A stretch of 39,609 nt of DNA, taken from the IMG/VR virus record IMGVR_UViG_3300008055_000088. One strand, 5' to 3'. This document shows positions 1 through 39,609 of this stretch, in pieces (the stretch's first letter is position 1; each line of letters opens with the position of its first letter). The stretch is from a virus. Under the pieces are notes generated by a model. That model worked only from the letters and a program-made list of their open reading frames with translations. It had not been told where the DNA came from and did no database searches. The position numbers were made by a program, and so were the translations under genes.

Positions 1-99
1 CAGCCCATGGAGCCATGAGCGTGGAATCTATCGCAGCGTTAATGAGTGCCACATATTGCTGGATGCCTTGGTAGGTCTAGGCAGTTTAAACGCCTCAAC
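1..99. repeat. Terminal direct overlap, identical to 39511..39609 (circular-closure signature)
   Basis: Base-for-base identity of the first and last 99 nt, read directly. The overlap lies inside an ORF. Confidence 0.95.
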
Positions 100-142
100 T
101 GGCGATTGGCTCAAGAATCGCGCAGAGGGTCTTAATAGATAG
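1..142 (+). CDS. C-terminal end of the Amidoligase_2-like protein (continuation of 38861..39609 across the circular junction)
   Basis: The frame starting at nt 2 is open from the window edge to TAG 140..142. It is in register with the ORF left open at the 3' end of the window. Confidence 0.8.
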   Translation, partial: SPWSHERGIYRSVNECHILLDALVGLGSLNASTGDWLKNRAEGLNR

Positions 143-244
143 CAGGGCAGCCTGCCCCAAGTGGGCTAAGCGAGGGAGCGTTACCCTCGGCAGGCACGAA
201 CGCCACGGAAATACCGTGAGCGTTTAAACGAAAGGACTGGAACC

Positions 245-385
245 ATGATTGAGTTCTATATCTACAGCAAGAACGGTACTTATCTCAGCACAAGCAAAGC
301 CAAAGACTTGGCAGAACTTGCCCAAATCAAAGCAGCGCTAGAAAACAACCAGCAAAAAATCACCATCATAAAGGTAGGTGTTTAA
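245..385 (+). CDS. Hypothetical small protein (46 aa)
   Basis: ATG 245 with AAAGGA 9 nt upstream. The stop TAA lies inside GTTTAAAC (380..387). Too short for the ORF track. Packed tightly between flanking same-strand genes. Confidence 0.45.
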   Translation: MIEFYIYSKNGTYLSTSKAKDLAELAQIKAALENNQQKITIIKVGV

Positions 386-387
386 AC

Positions 388-483
388 ATGGAATACGAAT
401 ACCTCAATGGCACCGCGATGCTATTGGTAGCGCTGCTTTTATGGGCGCTATACAAGGCACGAATCAGTGGCAGAAACGAATAA
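388..483 (+). CDS. Hypothetical small membrane protein (31 aa, one hydrophobic helix)
   Basis: ATG 388 lies 3 nt after the previous stop. Translation is MEYEYLNGTAMLLVALLLWALYKARISGRNE, with AAGGTAGG upstream. Confidence 0.4.
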   Translation: MEYEYLNGTAMLLVALLLWALYKARISGRNE

Positions 484-487
484 AAAG

Positions 488-571
488 ATGACTGAAAATG
501 ATGATTGTTTAAACAACACCGTCATTTGTGGCGACTGCTTGCGACCTTCATGCAAAGGTTGTGAGCAGTAG
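488..571 (+). CDS. Hypothetical Cys-rich micro-protein (27 aa, CxxC...CxxC, C-terminal Glu-Gln)
   Basis: ATG 488 to TAG 569..571. Translation is MTENDDCLNNTVICGDCLRPSCKGCEQ. No clear SD. Confidence 0.3.
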   Translation: MTENDDCLNNTVICGDCLRPSCKGCEQ

Positions 572-623
572 CCGATATGATATACTTGGACAACTAACCA
601 ACTAAAAGACTGGAGAATAGAAT

Positions 624-1508
624 ATGTGTGGAATAGCAGGATATTGCTTAGATGCTAAGCATTACTCACGCATCAGCACTAGCGACCTCGCAGGGCAGAT
701 GTTGTACGACATAGAACACCGTGGCATGGATGCAACGGGCGCTGCATGGATAAACCCACGCAACGGTAGGCGCGTTATCAGCAAGGCAGCAACCAGTGCC
801 AGCAAATTCGTGCCAAAGGCAGGCGCTAATCTTTGCGATGGCGCAACGACTGCCATCTTGCATACGCGCTTTGCAACCCAAGGCTCGCCAACTGTTGCAA
901 GTAACAACCACCCAATCCCACGCGGTAAAATCGTACTCACTCACAACGGACACATCAGCAACGATACCGAATTGTTTAAACAACTAGGTGTGCCCCGTCT
1001 TGGACAAGTAGATAGCGAGGCTGCTGCTGCTCTCATTGCTTTCAGCAAAGACAAGCCATGGGAAATCTTGACCCAACTCTATGGCACCGCAGCCCTTGCA
1101 TGGGTTACCCAACACGACCCGCGCTCACTGCACTTAGCCCGTGTCAATTCATCACCGCTATGGCTAGGGCAATCTAATCATGGCTCCCTGTTCTACGGTT
1201 CTACCAAAGAAACCGTGGAGAACGCTGCAATCATGACCGATTCAGAGATTGATTGGTTCCATGATGCAGCCGAGGGGGAGTACTTCAAGGTACGCGATGG
1301 CGCAATCATTGAGTACCAAACTTTTAAACCGAGCAAGCCTGAGCCTCGCTACTATGGCTACGGTGGAAACTGGTGGAACGAATACGACACGGTAACAACT
1401 ACACCGCGTGCTTATGCAACCGAACTTGATTATCATGGCAAATACAATCAACGCCGAGCAGATAAGTATGCACGCTGGTGGGAGGATAAAGACGAACTGA
1501 ACTTCTAG
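624..1508 (+). CDS. Class-II (Ntn-type) glutamine amidotransferase domain protein, stand-alone
   Basis: N-terminal MCGI (Cys2 nucleophile), plus HTRFATQGS, NNHP, LTHNGHISN and DSE motifs. SD TGGAG 8 nt upstream. A terminator follows. Confidence 0.85.
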   Translation: MCGIAGYCLDAKHYSRISTSDLAGQMLYDIEHRGMDATGAAWINPRNGRRVISKAATSASKFVPKAGANLCDGATTAILHTRFATQGSPTVASNNHPIPRGKIVLTHNGHISNDTELFKQLGVPRLGQVDSEAAAALIAFSKDKPWEILTQLYGTAALAWVTQHDPRSLHLARVNSSPLWLGQSNHGSLFYGSTKETVENAAIMTDSEIDWFHDAAEGEYFKVRDGAIIEYQTFKPSKPEPRYYGYGGNWWNEYDTVTTTPRAYATELDYHGKYNQRRADKYARWWEDKDELNF

Positions 1509-1547
1509 TTCTGTACAGGTACTAGCAACTCTCTACTGTTTAAACAG

Positions 1548-1571
1548 CCCCCGCTTCGGCGGGGGTTTTTT
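1548..1571 (+). terminator. Rho-independent terminator after the amidotransferase gene
   Basis: CCCCCGC-TTCG-GCGGGGG stem-loop followed by T6. It sits 2 nt after a GTTTAAAC (1538..1545). Confidence 0.8.
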
Positions 1572-1572
1572 A

Positions 1573-1728
1573 ATGTATGTACTGAAGTACATAATGCTCA
1601 CCGTGTTTAAACAACACAAGTATTTGCCGCCGCCACCGCCGTACCCACCACCACCGCCGCCAGACCTCCTGGAATTTATTGTTATGTGTTTAAACGACAC
1701 GCCGCCAGACCTTATCTTCAAATATTAA
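1573..1728 (+). CDS. Possible polyproline micro-ORF or leader peptide (51 aa)
   Basis: Translation is MYVLKYIMLTVFKQHKYLPPPPPYPPPPPPDLLEFIVMCLNDTPPDLIFKY. Same strand as its neighbours, no SD, starts right after the terminator T-run, and contains two GTTTAAAC copies. Confidence 0.25.
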   Translation: MYVLKYIMLTVFKQHKYLPPPPPYPPPPPPDLLEFIVMCLNDTPPDLIFKY

Positions 1729-1774
1729 ATTGTTTAAACAACACGAAAATTATTTTTATTTTTTCTGCTTAACA

Positions 1775-2018: not shown

Positions 2019-2195
2019 ATGTATTTAGCGACTGGAGAAATCATCGGCATCATCATTGCACTTACCAGTGCATTAATCGTGCTGGCTTTAGCCATTAAAG
2101 ACAACGCTCGTTTAAACAAATACAACATATACCTACGCAAGCGTAACTTAGAACTCACTAAGAAACTTGAGAACTCAGTAGAAAGACCGTTCTAA
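2019..2195 (+). CDS. Hypothetical membrane protein (58 aa)
   Basis: ATG 2019. Hydrophobic helix EIIGIIIALTSALIVLALAI. TAATG stop-start overlap with the next ORF. Confidence 0.5.
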   Translation: MYLATGEIIGIIIALTSALIVLALAIKDNARLNKYNIYLRKRNLELTKKLENSVERPF

Positions 2196-2413: not shown

Positions 2414-2660
2414 GCAAGGCACTTATGAGGGTTGGAAAAACTACGAAACATGGAACTGTGCGCTATGGATTAACAATGATTATCCACTGTATCTATCAGC
2501 CACAATTTTCATGAAGGCATACCGAGGTGTAAAGCCTTATCGTGATTGGGTAAGAATTGCTGGACTTGAAAACTCGCAGACCAAAGATGGTTGCAAATGG
2601 CTCAGCAGTAAATTATCCTATGCAGAACTTAATCAAATGATGGAAGGTTTAAACTCATGA
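2391..2660 (+). CDS. Hypothetical protein (89 aa; WKNYETWNCALWINND motif)
   Basis: ATG 2391 with GGAGG 7 nt upstream. Trp-rich motif of a type I recall from phage and plasmid proteins, family not verified. Confidence 0.65.
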   Translation: MPTKQGTKQGTYEGWKNYETWNCALWINNDYPLYLSATIFMKAYRGVKPYRDWVRIAGLENSQTKDGCKWLSSKLSYAELNQMMEGLNS

Positions 2661-3135: not shown

Positions 3136-3569
3136 TGTTTAAACGATTGGTCGCCATCTTCCTCATCGTCACCGCAAGCGTGGCAATAGACGACAGGTTC
3201 TTTGACAAATCACATGTGCCTATCACACCAGCCAGTGATGGAGTGGCAGGCACGGTGATTGCTTTCTATGAGAACGAATACCAACGCTACGCAGTAGACA
3301 TGCTCACACAGATGGGCAAACTGGAGCAATGGTCATGTCTTTACACACTATGGATGCGAGAATCAAACTGGAATCCACGAGCATTAAATCGTGAGAGTGG
3401 AGCATACGGAATTGCCCAGTTCATGCCATCAACATGGAAACTTGTGGGGTTTAAACGCACCGACAATGGCTTCGTTCAAGTGGAGGCAGGACTTGCATAT
3501 ATCCAGCGCAAGTATGGCGGAAATATCTGCAAGGCACTAGGTAGCAACATCTCAAGGGGTTGGTACTAA
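3135..3569 (+). CDS. Secreted lysozyme-like transglycosylase (SLT or aggregation-promoting-factor type domain)
   Basis: N-terminal signal/TM segment MFKRLVAIFLIVTASVAI. Catalytic-type motif WMRESNWNPRALNRESGAYGIAQFMPSTW. Confidence 0.7.
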   Translation: MFKRLVAIFLIVTASVAIDDRFFDKSHVPITPASDGVAGTVIAFYENEYQRYAVDMLTQMGKLEQWSCLYTLWMRESNWNPRALNRESGAYGIAQFMPSTWKLVGFKRTDNGFVQVEAGLAYIQRKYGGNICKALGSNISRGWY

Positions 3570-4137: not shown

Positions 4138-4276
4138 ATGAAGCAGATTTATCGCCAGTAATAATACGAATAGCCCAATCAAGTCCAGCGTTTAAACCTT
4201 TACACCACTCATCTTTCTCAGGTATCTTTGCATCTTCAATCTTGCTAACAAACTTATCTATCTGTGGGTCGCTCAT
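4136..4276 (-). CDS. Hypothetical small protein (46 aa)
   Basis: ATG 4276 overlaps the TGA of the kinase gene (ATGA). Translation is MSDPQIDKFVSKIEDAKIPEKDEWCKGLNAGLDWAIRIITGDKSAS. Confidence 0.45.
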   Translation of the reverse strand: MSDPQIDKFVSKIEDAKIPEKDEWCKGLNAGLDWAIRIITGDKSAS

Positions 4277-4809
4277 AGTTTAAACACATTGTGCATTAGC
4301 ATGAATACTTCATCAGATAAATCATCAAGAGTTCCATCGTTATAGAGGACTCGTTTAAACATGTGGTTATCCAAAGCGCGTTCACTGATATGGTCATTGA
4401 CTGCGCCATGGTTGTGTCTGTTTATACGCCACACTTCCCCATCTTGATTCTCAATCATGCGTGCTTCGTTAGGGAAGCGAACATCGGGTATAACAATGCG
4501 CTCACCAGTGGCAACCTGATTCAACAAACGCCACACCCAAACATCTTCATGAATTAACTTGCGACCAACTTCGGTACCCATAACTTGAAGCAAACGGCGC
4601 ACCTCATCTTTAGACTTGGCAACATCCCAACTATACATTTGTACTACCTCGTTTAAACGCATACCATCATGAAGAATAGGGTTCAATGCAAGTAATGCTT
4701 CACGAATACCATCAGCAAACGCTATGCGTTTAAACCCATAGTTAAGTACCAGTAGTTCTGCAACTGTATCCTTACCACTGCGAGCGTATCCGCTCAATCC
4801 GATAATCAT
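4273..4809 (-). CDS. Deoxynucleoside monophosphate kinase-like P-loop kinase
   Basis: N-terminal Walker A segment MIIGLSGYARSGKDT. Size and pattern are typical of phage dNMP kinases. Confidence 0.7.
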   Translation of the reverse strand: MIIGLSGYARSGKDTVAELLVLNYGFKRIAFADGIREALLALNPILHDGMRLNEVVQMYSWDVAKSKDEVRRLLQVMGTEVGRKLIHEDVWVWRLLNQVATGERIVIPDVRFPNEARMIENQDGEVWRINRHNHGAVNDHISERALDNHMFKRVLYNDGTLDDLSDEVFMLMHNVFKL

Positions 4810-4970: not shown

Positions 4971-5656
4971 TCTTGCTCCTCCTGATTTCTAATCATCGCT
5001 CTTGATTCAGCATTGGAGCGAACGCGCCTGCGCCCACGCCACACTGGTGCCTCTCCACCTAATCTGTCTTGCAACTTATTCAGTGCCCGTTTAACACGCT
5101 TACGCATGGCTTCCTCAGTAGTTCCATAAGTTTCACCAAGGGCACCAAACTCCATACCGCCATTGGCATAGCGCATACGAAGTAAGTCTTTGTCTGTCTT
5201 GTTTAAACGGTCCAAGCCTGCAGCAATATCTGACAAAAGTGCAATGCGATTGCCACCTTCGGATGGCTTAGTGCTACGACTTATGTACTCATTGCTCATA
5301 TCAGGAGTATCTGTCCAGCCTTGGTGTGTCCATACATCACGCAATAGTTCATGCAACACCTCATGTGTGTAGTAAAAACTATCATTGATTGGTGCGCGAG
5401 ATAGATGCGAGCGCTCTTTGGCTACATACTTCTGTGCTTCATTATAGAAAGTCTTACGCAGTTTAAACTTTAGACTTTCCTCTGCACTCCATTGTTCTAT
5501 CTTGTGCCAGTGTTCTAATGCCCACAATGAAAGGTGCTGGTATAAATCATCAGCAGTTACAAGTCCACGGTGTATGCGATTAGCACGGGTTGCCACCTGC
5601 CTAGCCACACCATAAATAGTTTCCCAAACTTTGTCTTGGCTATCCATCAATGCCAC
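4967..5656 (-). CDS. Sigma-70 family (ECF-like) RNA polymerase sigma factor
   Basis: C-terminal region-4-like HTH (DKDLLRMRYANGGMEFGALGETYGTTEEAMRKRVKRALNKLQDRL) and a region-2-like N-terminal half. Confidence 0.65.
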   Translation of the reverse strand: MALMDSQDKVWETIYGVARQVATRANRIHRGLVTADDLYQHLSLWALEHWHKIEQWSAEESLKFKLRKTFYNEAQKYVAKERSHLSRAPINDSFYYTHEVLHELLRDVWTHQGWTDTPDMSNEYISRSTKPSEGGNRIALLSDIAAGLDRLNKTDKDLLRMRYANGGMEFGALGETYGTTEEAMRKRVKRALNKLQDRLGGEAPVWRGRRRVRSNAESRAMIRNQEEQE

Positions 5657-6185
5657 CTGTAATTAATTCAATAGGTACGCGCCAGCCATCTATTGAAGCA
5701 TCGGCGTATTCATCTATCATAAAATCATCAGCCTTAAATGAACCAAAGATTTCAACTATGGAATAATACTCCTCATCTAAAATCTTAACGCCGAAGATTG
5801 TTCTGCCTACATCCTTCTTCCAAAAAGGAATTGCGCTTTGAGTCCTTACAGTTCTAACTTCAAACTCACCCACATCAGGTATGTTCTTGCGCCTAGAGTG
5901 CAGTTCATTGGGATACCAAGGCACTGACCATGACAAGTTGTATTCTCTAGCCACTGCCCACTCAGCAACATTGGCTCTGATATTCGCAAGAATCTCAGGC
6001 TCTAACTTTCCAAACTTCTTACCTGCTGCATAGTTAGGTCTATCAATGGAACCAAATTTGGTGAGCCAACGCTCTACTGCCAGTGTGGTACACACCCGCA
6101 CTTCTTCTTGACTCAGTTTAACAATCACTTGTTTAAACACCCACTCGCTTTCGTAGTCCCTCTGCTCCTTCGGTAAGGAACACAT
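5640..6185 (-). CDS. Hypothetical protein (possible nuclease-like IPDVGEFEVR motif); start uncertain
   Basis: The ORF-track entry 5640..6377 is trimmed here. Its first ~65 codons overlap the TOPRIM gene out of frame and look non-protein-like. Candidate starts are ATG 6185 or GTG 6140. Confidence 0.55.
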   Translation of the reverse strand: MCSLPKEQRDYESEWVFKQVIVKLSQEEVRVCTTLAVERWLTKFGSIDRPNYAAGKKFGKLEPEILANIRANVAEWAVAREYNLSWSVPWYPNELHSRRKNIPDVGEFEVRTVRTQSAIPFWKKDVGRTIFGVKILDEEYYSIVEIFGSFKADDFMIDEYADASIDGWRVPIELITGGIDG

Positions 6186-6753
6186 CGTTAACATCGCAGT
6201 TGTCAGGCATGAACACGGGGAATACATTGTCCAATTCTCTTGAGAGGGTCTTTGCCATCTCTTTACCTGCGTTATCACCATCACAAAACAACATAATCTT
6301 TTCCCAGTCTGCAAGAACACGAGAGTAAAATGGTTTCCAGTTGTTAGCCCCAGGCAATCCCACTGCTGAGAAGCCAACTTGTGTAGCGATGATGGTGTCT
6401 AATTCACCCTCGCATATCACAAGGAAATCTGTATCACTACTAAGCGCATCAACATTGTAAATGTGTGTGCTTGCTCCAGGTCTTGATAGATACTTCGGAC
6501 CGCTATCGTTGTTTAAACTACGGAAACGAATATCAATCACACCCGATGGAGTGAGGTATGGGATAGCCAACTTACCGAGGTAAGGTTCATGTCCTGCTTC
6601 AGGATTCGCCACGAATCCGAGGCGGAACATACGCGCCGTTTGCTCCGTTATACCGCGATTCATTAGGTAAGGCAACGCTTCTCCTAGGCTTGTTGCGTAG
6701 TTCTCCGTTGCTTTCGCCAGTAATTCTCTCTGCGATTTTGAGAGCCTTGCCAT
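6133..6753 (-). CDS. DNA primase, TOPRIM/catalytic part (DnaG-like)
   Basis: Motifs ICEGELDTI, GLPGANNW and FCDGDNAGKE. Strong SD AAGGAG 7 nt upstream of ATG 6753. The stop TAA lies inside GTTTAAAC 6131..6138. Confidence 0.8.
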   Translation of the reverse strand: MARLSKSQRELLAKATENYATSLGEALPYLMNRGITEQTARMFRLGFVANPEAGHEPYLGKLAIPYLTPSGVIDIRFRSLNNDSGPKYLSRPGASTHIYNVDALSSDTDFLVICEGELDTIIATQVGFSAVGLPGANNWKPFYSRVLADWEKIMLFCDGDNAGKEMAKTLSRELDNVFPVFMPDNCDVNDVFLTEGAEGLRKRVGV

Positions 6754-6997
6754 AATCCACTCCTTCTTTTTTCATGATTAATGAATACACATCTCCTGCC
6801 ATGTCGCAGGCAAAACATCTGAAGCCACCATTGTCTATGTTTAAACGAGCCGACTTCACATGGTCATTGTGAAAAGCGCAACGAATTGATTGCCACCCTC
6901 CACGATTCTGAGGAATTACAAATCCGTAATGCTCAAGTACTTTAACTATGCTGTGTTTAGAGGTTGGGGAGGACATCACTGAGTTTCTGAACGACAT
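6599..6997 (-). CDS. DNA primase zinc-finger (CHC2-type) protein
   Basis: CAFHNDHVKSARLNIDNGGFRCFACDMAGDVYSLIM matches the CHC2 zinc-finger pattern. The ATG 6997 (GGTGA upstream) is preferred to the GTG 7006. Confidence 0.75.
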   Translation of the reverse strand: MSFRNSVMSSPTSKHSIVKVLEHYGFVIPQNRGGWQSIRCAFHNDHVKSARLNIDNGGFRCFACDMAGDVYSLIMKKEGVDYGKALKIAERITGESNGELRNKPRRSVALPNESRYNGANGAYVPPRIRGES

Positions 6998-7322
6998 AGG
7001 CTTCACCTGTCCCTTTGTTGCTTGCCTTGATAATCACCAATGGTGTAGGCGCAACTGTCAATCGCTTTGCAATACGGTAGTTCTCTGCCTCAATCTCAGA
7101 CTCACGAATCCAACCACTCAAATCAATGCGACCATCACGGCGTGGAGCCTTGGCTTCCACCACATAAATACCATTGACTCCAGGAACAAACACATCACCA
7201 ATGTCATTACGACCAGCACGAGGTAAACGCTGTGCGTTTAAACCTTGTTGCATAAAGAAATCAGCAAGGTCTATTTCCCATGCAGCACCCCTACGCTTGT
7301 TGGCTACTTGCTGACTTGGCAT
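6957..7322 (-). CDS. PD-(D/E)XK-type nuclease, possible Holliday-junction resolvase
   Basis: Pattern G-AAWE...GRNDIGDV...YVVEAKA. ATG 7322 with GGAG upstream is preferred to the longer track ORF. Confidence 0.55.
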   Translation of the reverse strand: MPSQQVANKRRGAAWEIDLADFFMQQGLNAQRLPRAGRNDIGDVFVPGVNGIYVVEAKAPRRDGRIDLSGWIRESEIEAENYRIAKRLTVAPTPLVIIKASNKGTGEAYVVQKLSDVLPNL

Positions 7323-8034
7323 CGCGTTCTCTCCTCTCTGCTGCCTCTGCTGCTGCCCAATACAGGTTGTAATAGGCTTCATCAAAAGCAAATCGTTTCA
7401 TGTGTTTAGCAAGCACACCAGTATGGGCATGAACAGGTATACCTGCAGCCTTTACCTTTCGGAAGAAAGAAATATCTTCACCGATAAATTTCTCTCCTCG
7501 TTCGTTGTTCTCGCCAAACCAAAACTGGTCAGGGAACTTATCGTTTAAACCCTTGAGTATGCTCTTGTGCATCAGCACTAAACCCATGCCTGCATTATCA
7601 ACCTTTACTATCTGATTCTTAGGTAGAGGATGAAGATAACTAATCTCATACTCATTGCCAGTTTCATTAAAGACACAAGGCATAGGCTGCATGAGTGAGC
7701 CTTCCATCTGCTTAGAGATGAAATAAACACCGCTTACTATAGGTCGGGCTACCTTGTCAGCAGCATCCCATAGACTCTTTAACATCTCTTTGGTTAAGAC
7801 AATATCTGAATCAACCCACAGCGCCCAATCGGTATTGACCTGCTGCCACATCTCAATGGCTGCTTGTCTTTGTCGGGCAATCTGATTACCTTGAACACGA
7901 ACAGCATTATTAACTGGCACACCAACGGATGCTGCATGTATCAGTGTATAAACCAAGCCCTCAGTAAACTTGCCATCAGTGGTGCCATTGTCGCACCAAA
8001 TAATGGAAAGCATTTCTTTATTACTATGCGCCAT
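7291..8034 (-). CDS. GT-A fold (family-2-like) glycosyltransferase
   Basis: N-terminal beta-strand LSIIWCDNG and a DxD-type motif WVDSDI. Size is consistent. Family assignment is from motif only. Confidence 0.5.
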   Translation of the reverse strand: MAHSNKEMLSIIWCDNGTTDGKFTEGLVYTLIHAASVGVPVNNAVRVQGNQIARQRQAAIEMWQQVNTDWALWVDSDIVLTKEMLKSLWDAADKVARPIVSGVYFISKQMEGSLMQPMPCVFNETGNEYEISYLHPLPKNQIVKVDNAGMGLVLMHKSILKGLNDKFPDQFWFGENNERGEKFIGEDISFFRKVKAAGIPVHAHTGVLAKHMKRFAFDEAYYNLYWAAAEAAERRERDAKSASSQQA

Positions 8035-11010: not shown

Positions 11011-11068
11011 AAAACAAAAAAGCCCCCGCTCATCAAGAAATTTCTTGACGGCGGGGGTTCTTTTGTTT
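11011..11068. terminator. Bidirectional rho-independent terminator
   Basis: A-run, then CCCCCGC (11023..11029), an inner palindrome TCAAGAAATTTCTTGA, GCGGGGG (11051..11057) and a T-run. Convergent genes lie on both sides. GTTTAAAC follows at 11065. Confidence 0.8.
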
Positions 11069-11081
11069 AAACAGTATTAAG

Positions 11082-11798: not shown

Positions 11799-11801
11799 CG
11801 C

Positions 11802-12005: not shown

Positions 12006-12023
12006 GTTCTTATCCTTATATGT

Positions 12024-21024: not shown

Positions 21025-21281
21025 GCTGGTGTTATGTATGCTCCGTAGCCCTGTGCTGTAAGGGCATCAGCAGTCTGTTGGTTAATAAGACTTTTTGTTC
21101 CACCTAAGTAATACTCCTCCGCCTGATTTGTCTGAATCTGGCTTGGATACCTAAAGGAACTATACACTCCGTTTAAACGCAAGACAGATATGCCACGCGG
21201 TAGTTCAATACGAGCAAAGAGGATATGGTCCCCTGCTGGGGTTTCATCTACGGTGGGCGTAGTGAAGTAATACATTGACAT
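21021..21281 (-). CDS. Hypothetical protein (86 aa)
   Basis: ATG 21281 lies 4 nt after GGAGG, so it is preferred to the track start (GTG 21302). Confidence 0.55.
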   Translation of the reverse strand: MSMYYFTTPTVDETPAGDHILFARIELPRGISVLRLNGVYSSFRYPSQIQTNQAEEYYLGGTKSLINQQTADALTAQGYGAYITPA

Positions 21282-26792: not shown

Positions 26793-29700
26793 TTATCCAA
26801 GTGTCACAGGGTCATTTTGTAAAAAGCGATTATAGAAGTCATTAAACTCTGGAGATTTCTTAAGTTGCGCTACTGTGCTATTCCAGTAAGCATCTAAATC
26901 AGCATTGTCTTTTGCGGTAAGAGTAGATGCTCCACCGTATGCCCTGCGGTTTGATAACTCACGAGCAATTTGGGTGCGAGTATTTAGATAAACAGCCAAA
27001 TCCCTAGTTACTTGTCTGCGACCATTTTCTTGCATCCACTGTGGGTCAGTAAGCATTGTCTTAATAGACTGCATACGATAAATCCACTTACCTCTATCTA
27101 CATTGTAATAATCAGCAGCCCAATCTTGATTACGGCGGGTTAGGTCTGCAATCATCATTTGCTTAAGGGCAAGTAATTCCTCAGCGCCAGATTCCTGATA
27201 AGACTCATAACCTTGAGCATCAAGTTGGTAATCTAAACCTGTCATCTTTTTACGGAACTCAACCCAACCAACCTTTATATTGGCATCTTTCTTAAGTTCT
27301 GCAGGGTTTCTACGCTCACGATATTTTTCAATAGAGCCAGGAACTGGAGTGTTTCTATACTGCCAAGCATATACAGCCTCAGAGAAGTCATACTTACCAT
27401 CTGGGTCATTGACTAAGAAGCCAATCATTTCAGGTGTTGTTTGACCAATCTTGCTGATTAAGCCTTTGTACCTTTTGATATTTTGGAAAGCAGCCTGCGA
27501 AGCCTGCGCACCAGTAGGGTTGTAAGAACTAGATACAAGGGCTGGACCCATTTCTGGGTACATCTGTAAAAATAAAGTTTCTGCATCTGCGCCATAGACC
27601 TGCTGTATTCTACGGAATTGTTGTGTATAAAAACTTAATGGTGAATCATACTGTGCAGCAAATGGCATAACTAGATTAGAAAGAATCTTAACTCTGTATA
27701 AACTATCTGCTAGATTCTTTACTTCGCTTAATTCAGGCATGGTATCACGCTCGCCTAAGTTAAAACGGATTAATTCGTAACGATAAACTGTATTAAATGT
27801 ACGACTCCACGCTTCATCTTGACCGCCTAATGATGCAAGTTTTTGCATTGCTGGTGGAAATAGATTGCGAATAGTTCCTTCTTGTGGACCAAAAGGTAAT
27901 ACTGGAAGCATACTTTTTGTTACAATATCCTCTAAGTCAGGCTTTAGTTTAACAATCTCATTAACTGGAATTGTTACAAGAGGACCAAAACCTGCCAATA
28001 TTTCACCTTGCATAATAATGTCAAGACTTCGCACTGGAATAGAAACTTGTGTGCCTGATGAGCGCAAGGCTTCTGCCATGCCTTTGCCATATCCAGGAAT
28101 CTTCTCTACACCTTTAATAAAACTTGAAGGCATAGGCAGTACTATTTTGTTTTCATAAGAAAACTCAGTAGTTGGGTTGCCATCTCTATCAACCACATTT
28201 GGCTGATTACGCAGTGTGGACACAATTTGTCCAGCACGAGCGATAACCGCAGGATTCTCTGTTGCAAGACCAGACCAACGGCGAATAGTGTTTTCCCATG
28301 CGTTAAAGAACGGCATGACAAGGCGCATTTTTTCGCCAGCATAAGACTTACGAATAATCGTAAATAGAGTCTTATTTACTTCTTTGCGAGTTGACTCAAC
28401 AGCCTCACGGCGAACCTTATTAATATCATCAGTTGTTAACTGAGCATCATCACCAATGTTCATACGCTTAGTTGCTAGGGCAACATCAAGGCGTTGTTTC
28501 ATTTCTGAACGATAAACTTGGCGAGCCAACGGGTGACGGGCAAAGGTAGTTTCAGGTAATGAGCCTAGGAAATAAAACGCTCTATCAATAACCTTAGCCA
28601 AGCCATCTTGCCAGTTACGAGCCTGTGGGCTGGTTGGAACTATGCGCCCAATAATATCTGGCATCTCTGTATTATCGGCAAAATGATTCCGTAGCCAAGA
28701 CTCAGTAATTTCACCATTACGGAAGGCTTCTTGGGTTTGGCTATCTGGCAGATAACGATTGTAAGCACTGTATAAATCGCCAACAAAATCTTCTGCATCA
28801 ATAGATACATTTAACCGCTCTGATGCCACTCTATTTCCTGGCACATCAATATTGAACTTACGAGCATAGGCAGCATTTTCTGGAGCACGCAACCAAGCCA
28901 CAATTTCTTCTGGGCGTGTGTCATTGAGCATTTGCTCAATTAGTGGGTCAATACGCCCATCTGGACTACGAAAGAAAGTGTTTAATTGATTTGCATATCC
29001 TGAGTAATAATCAGGCATATTTGGAGATAAAACATTTTCTACATAGTTGCCATGTTCTGCTGCAAACATCCGTGCTGGATGGTCTACAAATCTGCGATAA
29101 GATTCTGTGTTGTCAGTTCTATCTAATAGAATCTGTCCAGGCTCACCACGGTAAGCATCATCAAATTCAACAGTTGTACCATCATAGAGTTTTTCTGTTC
29201 TACGACCAGTTCCTTGAATAACCTTTGGCGCTGCAAGGCGTTCTTCTTCTACGACTCGTGCGTTTAAACGACTTAGAAGTGCTTGTAAATCTCTACGAGT
29301 TGTTGCTTGTCCATCTGCTATTTCACGAACAAGTGAAACTATGCCTTCGGTTGGGTATCTTCCACTGGCGATGGACTCTGAGATTTCATTAACGCGCTTT
29401 CCAAAATTCTCCGAGCCAGCAATTCTGCGAACGCTCGGCGTTCTTGTGGATTCATCTGGTCTAACGGCTTTGGTGCCTTTACCCAGTGCAAACCTTTCGC
29501 TTGCTCCGACATCTCCTGTGCCTTTCGTTCCGATATATTCAAGTTCACCAAGGTCAAATACTCCTTGCTGATTGCGTGTTGTTCCTAGTCTAATGGCTTC
29601 TGCACGATTTGCAATTACATTTACGGGGTCGGACTTAATATGAGGAACACCATCAATATCGTCAATCCAAGTACCAAAATGGTCTGCACTGCCAAACTTA

Positions 29701-32700
29701 TCAAAATTAGCCTCAAAGTGGTCTGCAACAGAAGCAACCCAATTCTCTGGGTTAGTACGGGCTTGTTCCAGTGGGAACGCGTGCGTTGCCCCACGGATAG
29801 CAACTGCGACACCTTGCGTAGGTACATCACCAGTAACCATATCAGAGAACTTAAATGTTCCGCCTTGATTTTGAACAGTACGCTCAATAATCTGCAAGAT
29901 TCTGCCTTCGTCTGAAAGCAATTGTTGTGCATTTTTTGCTGCGTTTAAACGCTGTTCAGCCAAGGCTACAGTTGGTCTATTGCCAAATCCGTCAACTAGG
30001 TCAGGGTCAACAAGCACCGTAGAACCACCACGACTTTTTACATCAGGTAATACAAGTTTACCTATGCCATTAGCACGCATCCAGTTAAGCAGTTCTGGCT
30101 CTTTACCTTGCCAAGCATCACGAGTGCGAATTGTGCCTTTAGAAACACCAAGAATTGTTTGAAGTTCTGGATAATCAGCCAAGTCAAGAACTTGACGAGT
30201 TCTGGCTTGTCCTGAGTATTGCTGCATTGAGCGCAAATCTACAGTTTTGCCGTATACCTTTTGACCAATAGTTACGCCTTCTCTACCAGGCTTGCGGATA
30301 CGGAACTGTCCAGTAGTTAATAACTCTTGCGAAACTGTGTTTGGGTCAATAGATGTCCAGCGCCCTGTTGAAGGATTAAGAACTTGTATTTCGTTGCCAT
30401 TGTTAACGCTATTAATAAAACCATCACGCATATCTGCAGCAACTGTTTGAAGTGCAGCAGATGGTTGGCGCTTTGCTGGCTTCTTTGGAAGGATAGCCTG
30501 TACTTTAATATCTAAAGTACCTCTACGAATACTACTATCGCCTGCGTATGGCTTTACTTCTACTACTTTAAACTTTGTTCCAGGTGGAAGTAAAACTTCT
30601 TTTTCTGCTGCTATGTAACCGCTTGAAGGTTGAGCACCAAAAGGTGTAAGCGATGTATTAGTTGCCTCAATATCTAATCCAGGATGACCTTTAGGCAATT
30701 CAATTTCAAGTACATTTCCACCTCTAAAAGTAGATGCAACATCATATTCTTTAGATGTTGAAATAAAAGCATTATCTCCGATAATATCGCCAACTCTTGC
30801 ATTAGCGTAAATATCTCTTGTAACGCCACGATATACCGTTGTTGGTTGGACTATAACGCTGCGTTGAATTACGCGTTTAAGTCCTTCTACATATTTTCTT
30901 TGGGATGGATTTAAAGGTTCTGGAGTAACATCATCAGGAAAAGCAAAAAGATTACCGCGTAATTTGGCTTGTTCTGGACCTACTACTCCTTGGACATAAG
31001 GTGCAACAAAGTCATTGTATTCTTCAATAGATATACGACTTGCAACTTCTGGGGTACCAATTTCTGCGCCTGGAGAAAGTTCAATATTTCTAGGCATTGG
31101 ATAAGCACGACCAGAAGTACGCTTGTAAATTTCAGATGCACTGATTACTGGCATAGCCGAGGTTGCATAGCGCTCTGCCATGTCCTCGGTAAAGTTCATC
31201 GCCATAGGGCGTGTATTATCTAAAGCGCTAATTGGCGCTGGTGAACCATGGTATAAATACTCACCAGTTGCGTATTGGAATACATCAATGGCTTCTTTAT
31301 ACTGTTCATCAGTAAGTCTACCCATGCGATATAAACGCTCAATGGATTCTAGGAATACATCAAAATCTTGAAGCGCTCGCTCAGATGCAATAAGCAAAGA
31401 TTGTTTATCTGCAAATTCGCTACGCAACGCTACAGAATCCTCACGCAATCCTTGTGCTACAAGTCTGCGGTCTGTTAAGCGGTCAATATCCCGAACGCGA
31501 TTTGTGTACCAACCTTTAAATCCTTCTCGGTTAATATCACTAAGTGCCATAAGTCCATAGCCCTTAGCAAGAATAGATAAACTTGCTTCACTTAGGTTAC
31601 GAACAGTGTAACCAAGACGAAGAAGGACAGAGGCTTTCCAAAGGTCATTAAGAACACCAGTGGTGTATCGCCAAGAATCTGGGTCAGTAATTTCAGATGC
31701 GCGATTTAAGGTATTAAGCACGCCTTTATTCTTTTCAATAACACGAGAATAGTTAGCGAGGTCTACCATAGGTAGCGCGTTAGCGCCTTGGCGCTCTAGG
31801 TATGGAATCTTAAGAATTACATCATCGCCAGTCATTAAGAACTTACGGTCTTTAATCATCTGTCGCGCAGTTTCGCGGCGAGCCTTATATTGACTCCAGA
31901 TAACTTGACCAGCCTCATCGCTGATTCCAAGTTTTTGATTAATTAAAGATATAGATAAATCTTCAAATGATTCAACAACGCGAGCGCGAAGTTCTGGAAC
32001 TCCACCAGATTGTATGTAATCATTAAGATGGCGTTCAACTACAGGATTTGCTTCATCTCCAACAATACGGCGTAATAAAGTTCCAAATGCTGTTAATTCA
32101 TTATATGAATCAGAGTCGTTAAGATTAATATAACCTGATGGAGTTTCTTGGAAAGAATCGCCAACTTTCTTCATACCAAAATTTACTACTGCTACAAGAG
32201 GGTGATACTTAGTTGGTTGGAAATATCCAACGGTTGGAAACTTACTTGGCTCGTTTAAGTCAACACCTTTGACTTTAGCAGCACGGCGCTCGGCGCGGTT
32301 CATAGCCATCTTTTCAAAGGCTGGCTTACCAAATGTACGCTTAGTTAAAGCATTGCCATTTACATGTAATTTATTTAACGCTTGGAAATATGAATTGTTG
32401 TCAAGATTTGCAACATAATCACTGGCTGCATCAAGGACATTAATATCATCTACGATTCCATTGGTAGGAACTCCGTCAAGAATCATCATGTCAACTTTAG
32501 ATACATCTTTTGTTTTATCAAAAACAAATGCTAGTTCTTTACGCTTTGCAACGAGGCGAGCCATAGCCTCTGTATCTCCCAGCGCTGTGGCTGTAAGCAC
32601 ATCTGCTACATCATCTACAGTATCTGATTGACCTAGCAAGTAAGATAAAGTGTCTGCATCGTTAGATGCTTGAACCAGTGGATGTTGGCGAATTACAGTT

Positions 32701-35952: not shown

Positions 35953-35966
35953 ACCCACCTCCTGTT

Positions 35967-37823: not shown

Positions 37824-38182
37824 AGCATCTCCCAAGACGGGGTATTTGGAGTCTTGGGGCTAAACTCCTAACCGAAGGCGTAGTCTAAACGAAGCCGAAG
37901 GTTAGGGCTTCTACTAGGGCGACCCATAGGGTCGCAGTTAAGTGTTCGGAGGCTCCGATAATTTTGCCTCCTCACTAATACTATAGGTGTCCAAAAGGTC
38001 CTTAGCGGACACTTTTGGGCATGTGATTTACGCCACATTTATAGTAAATCAGCAAAAGTGCAGGTCAGAGCCACATTTATGGGGGGCGAGGACTAGCAAA
38101 GTTATGTAAGTAGATACATACACATACACACGCCGCGTTTTTAAAAACCCTGGGGTGCGATTTTGCATCGCGCACCCGCTCT

Positions 38183-38358
38183 CTGCATAGTGTTTAAACC
38201 CTGCACGCTGCAATGCTGCACTGCTCACGCTCCCACTAGCAGCACTGGCGCGGGTGGAGGCGCTTACTCTGCATTGATAGCGCCCCCGCTCTGCACGCAT
38301 CGCCCCGCGCCCCGTGTTTAAACTTTGCAGGCTCTGCACCCGCCCCGCCTGCACTGCA
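38183..38358. repeat. GC-rich block with nine CTGCA pentamers and two CCCGCTCT..GCA units
   Basis: Read directly. Two GTTTAAAC copies (38192 and 38316) are embedded 124 bp apart. Confidence 0.8.
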
Positions 38359-38389
38359 TCAATCGCAGAGGGCAGGCAGAGGCTCATAA

Positions 38390-38405
38390 GTTACCGATGA
38401 GTAAC
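38390..38405. promoter_or_regulatory. Operator-like inverted repeat GTTAC-N6-GTAAC (copy 1)
   Basis: Sequence is GTTACCGATGAGTAAC. Followed by CCTCAAAAAAGCAG and a TAAAAT -10-like hexamer at 38420..38425. Confidence 0.45.
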
Positions 38406-38494
38406 CTCAAAAAAGCAGTTAAAATAGCAAGCCATCTCACATGCCCAATATCTTAAGATGCAAAAACATAGCGTAAAATAATGCTTTGCTCATG

Positions 38495-38510
38495 GTTACT
38501 CGCTGGTAAC
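38495..38510. promoter_or_regulatory. Operator-like inverted repeat GTTAC-N6-GTAAC (copy 2)
   Basis: Sequence is GTTACTCGCTGGTAAC. It lies 105 bp from copy 1, start to start. Confidence 0.45.
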
Positions 38511-38614
38511 TTACAGCCCATAGTTTAAACACGCAGCCCATCTCAAGCCATGGCAGATAATCAAAGTGTTTAAACCCCTCAAAAAGCAGCGTCAAATAAT
38601 GACTTTTGAGATGC

Positions 38615-38643
38615 TTGAGTTTAAACGCCAAAGATGCAACAAT
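38615..38643 (+). promoter_or_regulatory. Candidate early promoter (TTGAGT-17 nt-AACAAT) overlapping a GTTTAAAC
   Basis: Hexamers at 38615..38620 and 38638..38643, about 40 nt upstream of ATG 38685. Weak -10. Confidence 0.2.
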
Positions 38644-38684
38644 CAGACCGTGGCACCGCGCCACACTCAGACTGGAGGCACCAA

Positions 38685-38858
38685 ATGACTCAAGGCATCA
38701 CGGTTGCAGAGGTTGCAAAACCAAAGCAGACCACCCGTCTACGCAAAGTTCTTTGCGAGGTAGACGGTTATATTGCAAGAATCTCCCGCTCCACACTTAT
38801 CACCTATGGCAGCCCAATCTGCCCTGCATGCAATCAAGCCATGAAAGAGGTCAAATAA
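38685..38858 (+). CDS. Hypothetical protein (57 aa), first gene of the early arm
   Basis: ATG 38685 with GGAGG 8 nt upstream, preferred to the track start at 38634. Confidence 0.6.
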   Translation: MTQGITVAEVAKPKQTTRLRKVLCEVDGYIARISRSTLITYGSPICPACNQAMKEVK

Positions 38859-38860
38859 TC

Positions 38861-39609
38861 ATGAGCATTACTTTTGGCATGGAGTTTGAAATCCAAGGCT
38901 TGAGCCCTGCAAGGGCATCAGATTGTCTAAATAGGGCAGGCATTGATTGCGATTTAGGCGATGGCACATGGTCATCAAAATATGATGGCAGCGTGCAAAA
39001 TGGCGCAGAGGTCATCTCTCCAATACTCACCACCCCTCGCCTCAATGAGGCGCACAAAGTAACCAAAGCGCTCAAAGCAGGTGGCGCACGGGTAGACCGT
39101 GCCACGGGTTTCCATGTCCATATTGGAATCCAATCCTTGGCAGCGCCTGAATCTAATCGCTCGCCTGCGTTCAATCTCGCCAATCTAGTTTTGAATTGGT
39201 ACGCAGCGCATCACGCGATTGCAGCGCTAGTTGCACCATCCCGTTTAAACAATCGCTACTGCAAAGTTCTAGGCGAGGCACATGCCACGGAGCAGGCAAG
39301 TTATAGCAGCAATGGCAGCAGAGGCGCATGGAACCAAAACCGCTATGTCAGCCTCAACCTAGAATCTATGCACCGCCATGGCACCGTGGAGGCACGCCTG
39401 CACCAAGGCACCTTGAACGGTGTAAAAGCAATCGCATGGAGCCAATTCATCAGCGCCTTCATAGATGCAACCGCTAACAAGGGTTTAAACGCCCTAGACA
39501 TGACTGGACTCAGCCCATGGAGCCATGAGCGTGGAATCTATCGCAGCGTTAATGAGTGCCACATATTGCTGGATGCCTTGGTAGGTCTAGGCAGTTTAAA
39601 CGCCTCAAC
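38861..39609 (+). CDS. Amidoligase_2-type (GCS2 / glutamine-synthetase-like carboxylate-amine ligase) protein; open at the window end, continues at 100..142
   Basis: My own translation gives FGMEFEIQG, GAEVISP, GFHVHIG and GTVEARLHQGT motifs with no stop before the window end. It is absent from the ORF track because it lacks an in-window stop. Total is 263 aa after circular joining. Confidence 0.75.
   Translation, partial: MSITFGMEFEIQGLSPARASDCLNRAGIDCDLGDGTWSSKYDGSVQNGAEVISPILTTPRLNEAHKVTKALKAGGARVDRATGFHVHIGIQSLAAPESNRSPAFNLANLVLNWYAAHHAIAALVAPSRLNNRYCKVLGEAHATEQASYSSNGSRGAWNQNRYVSLNLESMHRHGTVEARLHQGTLNGVKAIAWSQFISAFIDATANKGLNALDMTGLSPWSHERGIYRSVNECHILLDALVGLGSLNAS
39511..39609. repeat. 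Terminal direct overlap, identical to 1..99
   Basis: Same 99-nt string as the window start. Confidence 0.95.

Follow-up and report, generated by a model that had tools for sequence, protein, structure and literature searches.

A strictly exact palindromic octamer in an uncultured actinobacterial phage genome: a possible operator-like array

Cluster A mycobacteriophages carry more than 20 repressor sites (stoperators) genome-wide, which block both initiation and elongation of transcription (PMC9283540). Start-associated sequences keep to the half of the genome that holds the non-structural genes (PMC3203893), as the sites described here are likewise largely confined to one region. A further short repeat, HIP1, is an 8-bp palindrome that has been linked to methyltransferases (PMC4390886, PMC5861425).

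The genome of an uncultured freshwater actinobacterial phage (IMGVR_UViG_3300008055_000088) contains an array of the palindrome GTTTAAAC that resembles the known phage repeat arrays, both stoperators and start-associated sequences. The window, meaning the whole stretch of 39,609 nt that was analyzed, ends with a repeat of its first 99 bases, so the assembly is circular; its 39,510 unique bases contain 41 sites. An actinophage origin, as originally proposed, is supported by the presence of a WhiB protein and by the closest cultured relatives being Streptomyces podophages (49% large terminase identity). We give about an even chance to the reading that the GTTTAAAC copies form an operator-like array, at which a symmetric DNA-binding protein, itself probably a product of the exchangeable early module, would control or mark the early region.

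Abundance and exactness of the octamer

All 41 coordinates listed in the original prediction were exact on recount, with 42 copies in the window when the duplicate at 39594 is included. Of all 8-mers GTTTAAAC is the most frequent by a wide margin, with AGCAGCAG ranking second among independent words at 18 copies. Dinucleotide-preserving shuffles (n = 100) contained a mean of 0.92 copies and a maximum of 5, and Markov models of orders 0 to 4 gave expectations of 0.9, 0.93, 1.04, 1.79, and 3.81. Expectations at orders 5 and 6 were 15.7 and 31.5. The maximal-order model that had been suggested as a check is uninformative because its training includes the sub-words of GTTTAAAC itself; an order-3 model with GTTTAAAC masked gave 0.88. 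Shuffling of synonymous codons within genes produced 2.45±1.37 copies (maximum 7), compared with 24 sites fully inside coding sequence. The tens-fold excess claimed earlier, 41 copies against about 1 expected, is borne out.

The exactness of the word is strict. C follows GTTTAAA in 41 of 42 cases, 41 of the 60 TTTAAA words fall within GTTTAAAC, and there is no degenerate halo (24 one-mismatch neighbors observed, 19.6 expected). This all-or-none pattern would suit the target of a modification, nicking, or restriction-type enzyme of phage or host, the abundance of sites then reflecting the biology of that enzyme; an exact word that lacks degenerate copies is more often the mark of such enzymes than of transcription-factor operators. 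GTTTAAAC is also the PmeI/MssI recognition sequence, and the phage has possible DNA- or nucleotide-modifying genes for a dNMP kinase, an amidoligase plus class II glutamine amidotransferase, and a glycosyltransferase. Analogues would be HIP1 with its methyltransferases and the localized nicks of T5 and phiKMV-like phages. Such a target is nevertheless quite unlikely. Near-cognate words of GTTTAAAC are not depleted. In the scanned ORFs Pfam finds no methyltransferase and no site-targeting restriction or nicking endonuclease domain, which also goes against the earlier suggestion of a modification or nicking target. The only nuclease found there by Pfam is a PD-(D/E)XK recombination-type protein.

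Distribution along the genome and reading frames

Sites are strongly clustered, with 33 of the 41 within 22% of the genome, from 38192 through the wrap to 7550 (binomial p = 5e-15). Within this dense zone lie the early operon, the distal replication genes, and what is likely the genome-end region; genes for WhiB and a sigma factor (229 aa, sigma-70 region 4) adjoin it. The dense arm lies on one side only; on the other, the first 8 kb past the large terminase gene contain no sites. A mutational or repair drive of the kind expected for an enzyme target would be genome-wide, whereas the sites are regional, and mimicry of a host palindrome, another role proposed originally, fits the clustering poorly. 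Non-coding and gene-boundary DNA, 9.5% of the bases, holds 17 sites, a density about 7-fold higher. Clusters of 3-4 sites spaced by 44-83 bp occur upstream of the first early ORF and in the 1509-1813 gap, where the cluster is kept in relatives. The features are as follows.

84..91: inside the amidoligase gene, S-L-N phase
222..229: intergenic; ATG of small ORF 245-385 begins 15 nt downstream
380..387: provides the TAA stop of ORF 245-385; ATG at 388 abuts
507..514: intergenic; glutamine amidotransferase (GATase) gene 109 nt downstream
974..981: GATase gene, F-K phase
1538..1545: first of a four-site intergenic cluster; directly 5' of terminator hairpin 1546-1567
1605..1612: intergenic cluster; cluster position kept in relatives
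1688..1695: intergenic cluster
1732..1739: intergenic cluster; ORF 1814 starts 74 nt downstream
2110..2117: ORF 2019-2195, L-N phase
2647..2654: 3' end of DUF7249 gene, 2 nt before ATG of ORF 2657; serves as the spacer between ribosome-binding site and start codon
2835..2842: DUF3846 gene, F-K phase
3137..3144: overlaps the SLT lysozyme gene start (ATG-TTT-AAA-C)
3449..3456: SLT gene, F-K phase
4190..4197: junction of convergent + and - strand gene blocks; small ORF 4136-4276, - strand
4278..4285: last codons of dNMP kinase gene; 1 nt upstream of ATG of ORF 4276
4353..4360: dNMP kinase gene
4651..4658: dNMP kinase gene
4728..4735: dNMP kinase gene; the relatives' own motif sits 4 codons off, indicating turnover
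5201..5208: sigma factor gene, R-L-N
5461..5468: sigma factor gene, F-K phase
6131..6138: provides the stop codon of the Toprim primase gene
6511..6518: Toprim primase gene
6839..6846: primase zinc-ribbon ORF
7236..7243: between glycosyltransferase gene and primase zinc-ribbon ORF
7543..7550: glycosyltransferase gene; last site of the dense zone
11065..11072: intergenic, beside a G+C-rich hairpin and T-run
12022..12029: provides the stop of a 656-aa gene; next ATG 16 nt downstream
18769..18776: adaptor gene, 57 nt before its stop; upstream of tail gene
19674..19681: ORF 19602-19877, near its 3' end; upstream of adaptor gene
21171..21178: ORF 21021-21302
26673..26680: ORF 25624-26787
29262..29269: 2221-aa gene
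29943..29950: 2221-aa gene
37868..38633: non-coding region between large terminase gene and early operon, with 5 sites and other repeats; probably contains the genome ends and early control region
38192..38199: roughly 1 kb of non-coding DNA upstream of large terminase gene; likely genome-end region
38316..38323: non-coding end region, within the repeat GTGTTTAAAC(C/T)(C/T)TGCA
38523..38530: opens a triplet with spacings of 45 and 51 bp, ahead of the first early ORF
38568..38575: middle member of the triplet
38619..38626: last member of the triplet; zinc-ribbon ORF ATG 7 nt downstream
38634..38858, + strand: zinc-ribbon ORF, 74 aa, first gene of the early operon
39243..39250: amidoligase gene
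39483..39490: amidoligase gene
39594..39601: assembly duplicate of site 84, from the 99-bp terminal overlap

Genes contain 25 of the 41 sites, and coding sites occur in two phases only, xGT-TTA-AAC (R/G/S-Leu-Asn, n = 16) and G-TTT-AAA-C (Phe-Lys, n = 9). The third phase is seen solely as a stop codon, as had been reported, at 380, 6131, and 12022. Flanking bases, previously described as not conserved, have a weak symmetric preference, K-Y-GTTTAAAC-R-M, or (T/G)(C/T)GTTTAAAC(G/A)(C/A), and TGTTTAAACA is common. Taken together, the two codon phases, the use of both coding strands, the intergenic copies, the excess over codon shuffles, and conservation well above background point to selection at the DNA level; the earlier view that the unit is the exact 8-mer, selected as DNA and not as peptide, holds. 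Clustering in one arm, weak symmetric flanks, and the lineage-specific motif switching described below were all absent from the original prediction.

Conservation and motif switching in relatives

Enrichment and positional conservation of GTTTAAAC-type sites, both raised originally as checks, are found in relatives. Between genomes that are 62-86% identical, exact conservation of the 8-mer is 63%, compared with 14.7% for background 8-mers (p = 2e-10), and the DNA word is under purifying selection. Relatives can be grouped by motif: type A has GTTTAAAC, type B an asymmetric word with one half changed, and type C (for example, phage L070) a GTCTTAAG-type site. Switching is concerted. Some relatives have GTCTAAAC, with one half-site altered, at the same positions, and within the same alignment columns GTTTAAAC is swapped for GTCTAAAC or GTTTAGAC; the double-changed word GTCTAGAC has no copies across all 80 loci. 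Codon cost sets which half is changed (TTA to CTA is synonymous, AAA to AGA replaces Lys with Arg). The cheaper route was taken in 48 of 63 cases within coding sequence; selection therefore acts on the DNA word, whichever way round it lies. Other relatives have TGTCTTAAGACA-like sites directly ahead of ribosome-binding sites, and the type C site is an imperfect palindrome of 18 bp, TTmTGwCTTAAGACAGrA. Some lineages have zero perfect GTTTAAAC and retain 7/8 bases, as expected from escape from a GTTTAAAC-specific nuclease; counting against an enzyme target, arrays persist in type C phages, in which amidoligase and amidotransferase are absent.

The type A phage L068 and L070 are 97% identical in the replication module and large terminase gene; their early modules are swapped, their motifs differ, and so do their tail-fiber-region genes. 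Within the shared part one site was lost synonymously and another became a near type C site via five amino-acid changes. The L068 site in the sigma gene, CGT TTA AAC (R-L-N-K), is lost in L070 by a synonymous AAC to AAT change; the window site 5201..5208 is probably homologous to it, judging from the shared R-L-N-K context, unaligned. A same-context counterpart of site 11065..11072 is kept in both L068 and L070.

The type C pattern bears on whether the word acts in RNA or translation, as a start-associated element or an A+U-rich enhancer preceding the ribosome-binding site, with intragenic copies as by-products. The proposed analogue is the start-associated sequence of Cluster K mycobacteriophages. 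Type C CTTAAGAC lies directly ahead of AGGAG and the start codon of most early genes, mainly in one orientation (48 vs 7), GTTTAAAC-A-AGGAG is frequent in the second phage group described below, and six window sites (222, 380, 2647, 3137, 12022, and 38619) are <=16 nt from a start codon. Against this, a nearby ribosome-binding-site/start pattern accompanies ~30% of type A sites compared with 20% of random positions, type B sites occur in both orientations ahead of start codons, their orientation set by codon cost and not by transcription direction, clusters fall in gene-free DNA, and most window sites are intragenic. We consider a start-associated role improbable.

An unrelated group of 55-65 kb phages carries the same GTTTAAAC arrays along with variants of its own, at G+C contents from 29 to 57%, which favors a factor carried along by the phage over a host-specific one. 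Weak binning hints that the hosts of the two groups belong to different phyla (Microbacteriaceae and Burkholderiaceae). This range, together with the tentative second phylum, is a poor fit to a lineage-specific host factor, such as a nucleoid or global DNA-binding protein or the reader of a Chi-like signal that protects from an end-processing nuclease, for which motif types would mirror different hosts. In favor of a host factor, motif type in the first group follows G+C (C 39-41%, A 41-50%, B 51-53%), a correlation that would also fit host-determined recognition; L070 and L068 differ not only in their early modules but also in tail-fiber-region genes; searches of the early module with Pfam and PHROGs found no phage-encoded binder; and the dense zone lies beside the putative genome end, where protection from end-entering nucleases would matter. 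However, there is one dense arm, with the first 8 kb past the large terminase empty on the other side. A site-triplet scan of 185,579 genomes gave no host genome rich in GTTTAAAC among the matches listed, which were CRISPR arrays, tandem repeats, A+T-rich chance matches, and two phage-like contigs. Known Chi sequences are asymmetric and vary between lineages, which counts against a Chi-like signal. A host factor is, overall, an unlikely reader of these sites.

Candidate binding proteins and a possible operator-like function

Since sigma factor and WhiB genes lie beside the dense zone, GTTTAAAC could be a promoter element for the 229-aa sigma factor, perhaps with the WhiB-like protein. Short, strictly conserved phage promoter elements do exist, such as the T4 late TATAAATA. 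This explanation is largely refuted and very improbable. The sigma factors of L068 and L070 differ at 2 residues, both outside the helix-turn-helix, while the motifs differ, and WhiB identity varies from 41 to 100% among GTTTAAAC phages. In mosaic genomes WhiB lies in the type A part, outside the variant block, and type B sites fill the other part. Both proteins, proposed originally as binders, are thus disfavored. Furthermore, the ±25 nt around the sites show no conserved second promoter element, a sigma-70-like promoter scan found no excess, and the orientation of type B sites is independent of genes.

Among the three roles suggested originally, a binding-site array fits best. GTTTAAAC with its weak symmetric flanks would be the recognition site for a protein on double-stranded DNA; given the twofold symmetry, orientation independence, and all-or-none exactness, the GTTT half-sites may be read by a pair of identical subunits or by two monomers. 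Selection keeps a dense array over the early/right arm (end region, the zinc-ribbon ORF-to-WhiB operon, and distal replication genes), with a few extra copies at operon or gene junctions of the late region. The factor, presumably encoded in the exchangeable early module, would occupy these sites and control the early region. Once bound at operon boundaries and gene starts, the factor could occlude transcription or block it, much as at stoperators, and it may likewise define a specificity or immunity group. Lineages would then have changed the word through a new specificity (TGTCTTAAGACA-type) or in one half-site everywhere (GTCTAAAC; ATTTAAAC or GTTTAAAT). A one-half-changed variant is not predicted by a simple altered-specificity homodimer.

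Among the early-module products, neither Pfam nor PHROGs detects a helix-turn-helix or ribbon-helix-helix protein. The primase is disfavored as the recognizing factor. For a zinc-finger protein, the third binder named originally, there are two candidate ORFs, g2657 (2657-2773) and the zinc-ribbon ORF 38634-38858, with weak evidence for each. The latter, a weak candidate binder, matches the C-terminal domain of a SprT-like family (phrog_6361), the only non-replication, non-terminase family clearly common to the second array-bearing group. Its predicted fold matches generic zinc ribbons only, and its sequence does not follow the switch from GTTTAAAC to GTCTAAAC. SprT-like relatives are common in cultured actinophages; in the only one of these phages checked, Immanuel3, a comparable array is absent and no match to the SprT-like family is on record.

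Exact copies of the palindrome and their distribution

The palindrome GTTTAAAC, the recognition site of PmeI/MssI, is by far the most frequent 8-mer of the window. Every position listed in the original prediction is exact, and an exact search finds 42 copies, including that at 39594. Bases 1-99 recur as bases 39511-39609, an exact 99-bp terminal overlap, so that the window represents a circular assembly, 39,510 bases long, that carries 41 sites and in which site 39594 duplicates site 84. The overlap marks the contig as circularised in assembly, from DNA that is either circularly permuted or terminally repetitive. Dinucleotide-preserving shuffles lead to an expectation of 0.92 copies and a maximum of 5, against the 42 found. 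Markov models predict 0.9-3.8 copies at orders 0-4, and the higher figures at orders 5 and 6 (15.7 and 31.5) arise because sub-words of the motif enter the training of these models; once the motif is masked, an order-3 model expects 0.88. A maximal-order Markov null had been suggested as a check on the excess and is uninformative, since its training includes the sub-words of the motif. The second suggested check, shuffling of synonymous codons within genes, bore out the proposal of selection at the level of DNA: 24 coding copies are observed and 2.45±1.37 expected.

GTTTAAAC behaves as an all-or-none word. Its one-mismatch neighbours are neither enriched nor depleted (24 observed, 19.6 expected), GTTTAAA is followed by C in 41 of 42 cases, and 41 of the 60 TTTAAA sequences fall within the full word. 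The flanks carry a weak symmetric bias, K-Y-GTTTAAAC-R-M. We interpret the word as a DNA-level recognition site, usable in either orientation, whose reader would most simply be a twofold-symmetric protein or two monomers. The next commonest 8-mers in the window, AGCAGCAG and GCAGCAGC, occur at 15-18 copies, which probably reflect repeated GCT/GCA/CAG-type codons in the structural genes of the minus strand.

The genome is that of an uncultured, freshwater-type actinophage with a podovirus-like gene set, and its plus-strand genes form one operon that crosses the assembly junction.

Features of the window (coordinates, strand, description)
37868-38633, non-coding stretch of about 1 kb with G+C-rich CTGCAC-type repeats and a 20-nt inverted repeat (38387-38406 / 38494-38513)
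38634-38858, plus, 74-aa zinc-ribbon ORF
38861-39510 and 1-142, plus, amidoligase, Amidoligase_2 (PF12224)
624-1508, plus, class II glutamine amidotransferase
2657-2773, plus, 38-aa ORF with a zinc-finger-like CxxC...HxxxxH pattern (MKLIICPVCSKEW...IRHIKDEH)
Early operon, plus, DUF7249 and DUF3846 proteins, SLT lysozyme and WhiB
4967-5656, minus, sigma factor
6133-7006, minus, split DnaG-type primase (zinc-ribbon ORF 6599-7006, Toprim ORF 6133-6753)
26793-33458, minus, 2221-aa protein with an ADP-ribosyltransferase exoenzyme domain at residues 855-978 (PF03496, E = 8.6e-10)
34132-35958, minus, 608-aa ORF in the portal position, without Pfam support
35967-37835, minus, large terminase
Minus, capsid, adaptor and tail genes
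Minus, PD-(D/E)XK nuclease and DnaB-like helicase
Minus, glycosyltransferase
Minus, dNMP kinase

Among cultured phages, the Immanuel3 group of Streptomyces podophages is nearest, its large terminase being 49% identical to that of the window; no cultured phage matches at the nucleotide level, and Immanuel3 itself lacks a comparable array. Among the ORFs scanned, Pfam and PHROGs searches revealed no integrase or repressor-like helix-turn-helix protein, and a methyltransferase domain was detected in none of them. The 2221-aa product is probably an ejected internal virion protein, with a predicted toxin-like activity. The two primase ORFs overlap by 155 nt in different frames, and in Immanuel3 two overlapping CDS are likewise annotated as 'DNA primase'; the arrangement in the window could represent a frameshift or a two-protein primase. 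Minus-strand ORFs called within 37868-38633 look spurious, and this stretch is a likely site of the genome termini and of early control signals. By analogy with Immanuel3, the genome ends would lie here, upstream of the large terminase gene, and the plus-strand operon would then be an inward-reading right arm.

The array covers this early arm and extends to operon junctions. Thirty-three of the 41 sites lie between 38192 and 7550 over the assembly junction, in 22% of the genome (p = 5e-15), and the other 30.6 kb hold eight sites, still about 10 times expectation. Non-coding and gene-boundary positions make up 9.5% of bases and contain 17 sites. Four are placed around a strong terminator in the gap between the amidotransferase gene and ORF 1814, and the end region holds five, including a triplet with spacings of 45 and 51 bp directly upstream of the first early ORF. 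Scans for Rfam families, tRNAs, sigma-70 promoters and terminators gave nothing relevant except one terminator, beside site 1538. Inside genes there are 25 of the 41 sites, and on both coding strands these occupy just the two open phases, x-Leu-Asn and Phe-Lys; stop codons are supplied by the sites at 380, 6131 and 12022. About six of the 41 are near start codons, several within 16 nt of one.

Conservation and variants of the word in other phages

A search with the sigma factor (77-100% identity) identified 80 related IMG/VR loci, in nearly all of which no 8-mer is more frequent than the word (0.5-4 copies per kb). In an alignment of the window with the right arms of twelve genomes that show 62-86% identity to it, exact conservation was seen in 63% of comparisons for the sites of the window and in 14.7% for other 8-mers (p = 2e-10). 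Many of the sites are confined to particular lineages, and turnover is thus seen beside conservation. Many related contigs are short fragments, so the repeated word probably adds to the broken assemblies of these phages.

Phages with GTTTAAAC arrays (type A) have relatives in which the word differs. In type B, which comprises L072-74, the right arms of L041, L043 and L053, and L368-L390, one half-site is changed to give GTCTAAAC. This variant is present at 20-26 copies and fills the same alignment columns as GTTTAAAC of type A genomes, with zero copies of GTTTAAAC itself and of the doubly changed GTCTAGAC in these genomes or arms; TTTAAA (DraI-like) has fewer than 1.3 copies expected there. 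The choice of strand follows protein cost. In the Leu-Asn phase sense GTCTAAAC prevails, 30 versus 6 (TTA to CTA is synonymous), and in the Phe-Lys phase sense GTTTAGAC is found 18 versus 9 times (Lys to Arg). Orientation follows codon phase, not gene strand. The right arms of type B fall into two backgrounds with only 55% identity between them, and one of these is nearer to type A genomes (73%). In type C (L059-61, L070, L075, L077 and L079) the CTTAAGAC-like site is an 18-bp imperfect palindrome, TTmTGwCTTAAGACAGrA, which usually adjoins the ribosome-binding site of early genes in one orientation. No protein change matching the change of word was found. The amidoligase and amidotransferase genes, adjacent in the early operon, are present in types A and B and absent in type C relatives.

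A scan of IMG/VR for three sites 30-60 nt apart recovered at least 120 loci, about one-third of them from an unrelated group of phages. These second-group genomes are 55-65 kb long, with a T7-gp4-like primase-helicase, a G+C content of 29 to 57% and a large terminase 20-23% identical to that of the window. They carry GTTTAAAC at 0.5-2.8 copies per kb, and copies often directly precede a ribosome-binding site or form triplets with a spacing of about 48 bp. In each of four second-group loci (L433, L434, L438 and L441) the perfect word is found once at most, and two of these, L438 and L441, have 33-34 TTTAAA sequences each, mostly with R...Y flanks (ATTTAAAC, GTTTAAAT, ATTTAAAT).

That every perfect copy has been purged from some lineages is compatible, if indirectly, with the proposal that the word is the target of an enzyme of strict specificity, such as a PmeI-like one. 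We know of no cognate enzyme for the host of the window phage. Phages generally avoid restriction palindromes, whereas this one is enriched about 40-fold in the PmeI site. We regard an enzyme target as distinctly unlikely to account for the array. It may be speculated that the variants changed in one half-site are escapes from a nuclease that needs the perfect palindrome, with most binding kept. Purging of perfect sites could also expose a host restriction specificity.

Profile searches identified few families common to both groups. The primase and the large terminase are shared, together with an SprT-like protein whose C-terminus is a zinc ribbon, the only part of it kept in the window; the amidotransferase matches weakly, and the small protein of ORF 4136-4276 weakly and in part. 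In the second-group locus L125, positions 11597-11836 encode a 79-aa protein with a classical CxxC-x12-HxxxxH pattern. Positions 11311-11622, also in relatives of L125, encode a protein of about 103 aa with a ribbon-helix-helix-like N-terminus (KPFMTYVSEDEHLRMKKFAKLKKITMAQMIREAI). To judge from its sequence, the latter is a possible alternative binder in the second group; its C-terminal half is the only part that weakly matches window ORF 4136-4276. Of two short phage-like contigs, the one from the first group was binned with a Microbacteriaceae MAG and the one from the second group with a Burkholderiaceae MAG, a hint that the two groups infect different phyla.

Candidate readers of the array

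Two near-identical relatives allow several candidate readers to be assessed. L068 (3300007735_000671, type A) and L070 (3300011116_000277, type C) share 97% nucleotide identity in the replication module and the large terminase gene, have exchanged an early module of about 6 kb, and differ in two extra genes in the tail-fibre region of L070. The pair is a clean example of modular recombination. In the shared part of L070, one site has been lost through a synonymous AAC to AAT change and another rebuilt to near type C through five amino-acid changes. The sigma factors of the two phages differ at two residues while their motifs differ, and the primase domains of types A and C are 98-99% identical; this near-identity excludes both proteins as readers, the primase having been considered since GTT and GTC resemble the triplets recognized by T4 and T7 primases. 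With neither co-variation with the sigma factor nor a fixed orientation upstream of genes, we consider it extremely unlikely that the sites are sigma factor promoters. WhiB is disfavoured: type A phages have hypervariable versions of it, and in the L041 and L071 mosaics its gene is found in the type A part, outside the type B block.

Searches with Pfam and PHROGs found no helix-turn-helix or ribbon-helix-helix protein in the early module. The best candidate at hand, a weak one, is the zinc-ribbon protein related to the SprT C-terminus. Its sequence does not follow the type A to type B switch, its structural model is moderate (pLDDT 70.7), Foldseek returned generic zinc ribbons only, and a PDB profile search returned nothing. 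SprT-like proteases are common in cultured actinophages.

The reading we prefer, to which we give about an even chance, is that the reader is an early factor encoded by the phage, with the array acting as operators or roadblocks or as a marking system. In its favour, the array goes with the early module when that is exchanged, and so does its specificity; in the second group, moreover, the same word is retained at widely differing host G+C. Recognition by a host factor is, on our assessment, unlikely. A triplet scan of genome contigs found no word-rich host genome among the matches listed, which were mostly CRISPR arrays and tandem repeats.

A phage-encoded reader could belong to a larger scheme, doubtful in our estimation, in which a small early protein and an iterated exact palindrome would form a portable specificity system, with the array reshaped by host restriction. 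Such a system would mark the early arm of lytic freshwater phages and set compatibility or immunity groups. It would be swapped as a module between near-identical phages such as L068 and L070, and would have spread to, or been kept in, unrelated lineages infecting different phyla. Host restriction specific for GTTTAAAC would repeatedly force a one-base change in one half-site of every copy. If true, phages that are not temperate, and whose hosts are the most abundant freshwater bacteria, would follow an immunity logic like that of stoperators.

Phage genomes rarely offer, as a handle on regulation, a short word that recurs tens of times. The present case is a clean one, with an exact 8-mer, hundreds of independent metagenomic relatives, and natural experiments in the form of module swaps, concerted single-base switching and a second group with the same word. 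The hosts are probably abundant, hard-to-culture freshwater Actinobacteria, which makes the array a testable entry into how these phages programme infection.

Comparison with known repeat words

We found no description of GTTTAAAC in phages; a literature search on the word in phages turned up cloning uses only. Stoperators, start-associated sequences (SAS) and HIP1 are the known cases of such repeated words.

By analogy, the array appears to work most like the stoperators of Cluster A phages. In both, tens of copies of one short word (41 in the window) are spread over a phage genome, many in short intergenic gaps, and the action proposed for the array is, as with stoperators, a block of transcription initiation and elongation. 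The Cluster A word diversifies between related phages, whose immune specificities have been treated from the side of their evolution (PMC6550527). The word studied here does so too: the first group has types A, B and C, and RTTTAAAY variants are found in the second group. A stoperator is an asymmetric site of 13 bp, bound by a monomeric two-domain repressor and effective in one orientation relative to transcription, and the phages are temperate, with a known repressor (PMC9283540). The window, in contrast, has an exact 8-bp palindrome, whose asymmetric variant in relatives is indifferent to orientation, in place of an asymmetric oriented 13-mer, and neither a repressor nor an integrase was found in the ORFs scanned.

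The SAS and ESAS of Cluster K share with the array their restriction to the non-structural genome arm and a suspected host or phage factor (PMC3203893). SAS is a 13-bp asymmetric word that includes the ribosome-binding site, 3-7 bp from start codons and in one orientation (PMC3203893). Type C relatives, with CTTAAGAC-AGGAG-N-ATG in one orientation, closely resemble it and are the only phages here with such start-site placement. The word of the window, unlike SAS, is palindromic, mostly off gene starts, and also present in gene-free clusters and late genes; across type A genomes a start pattern is nearby for 30% of sites and 20% of controls. A start element acting in translation is therefore, in our judgement, very unlikely.

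HIP1 of cyanobacteria (GCGATCGC) is also an exact 8-bp palindrome, tens- to hundreds-fold over-represented, that lies in coding DNA in permitted frames and is conserved beyond neutral expectation (PMC5861425, PMC4390886). The palindrome of the window, too, is short, exact and over-represented tens-fold. HIP1 characterizes whole cellular genomes and is tied to cognate orphan methyltransferases (PMC5861425, PMC4390886), whereas the array is regional (p = 5e-15) in a 39.5-kb phage without a methyltransferase in the ORFs scanned.

Two other likenesses concern single elements of the sites. The common extended form TGTTTAAACA matches the outer TGTTT...AAACA of the parS half-sites (TGTTTCAC-GTGAAACA) and the KorA operator (GTTTAGCTAAAC), but the half-site spacing is off by 4-6 bp and no ParB- or KorA-like protein was found; we treat this as a lead, not a relationship. 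The GTGTAAAC repeat of L392 was considered as a member of the array and set aside as a distinct feature, part of an oriented, promoter-like repeat of about 40 bp (..GAGTGTAAACGCACCGTGGCACG..). It belongs to a phage fragment (L392, 932-11757) with 72% G+C, in which GTGTAAAC occurs eight times, five of the copies with the full repeat.
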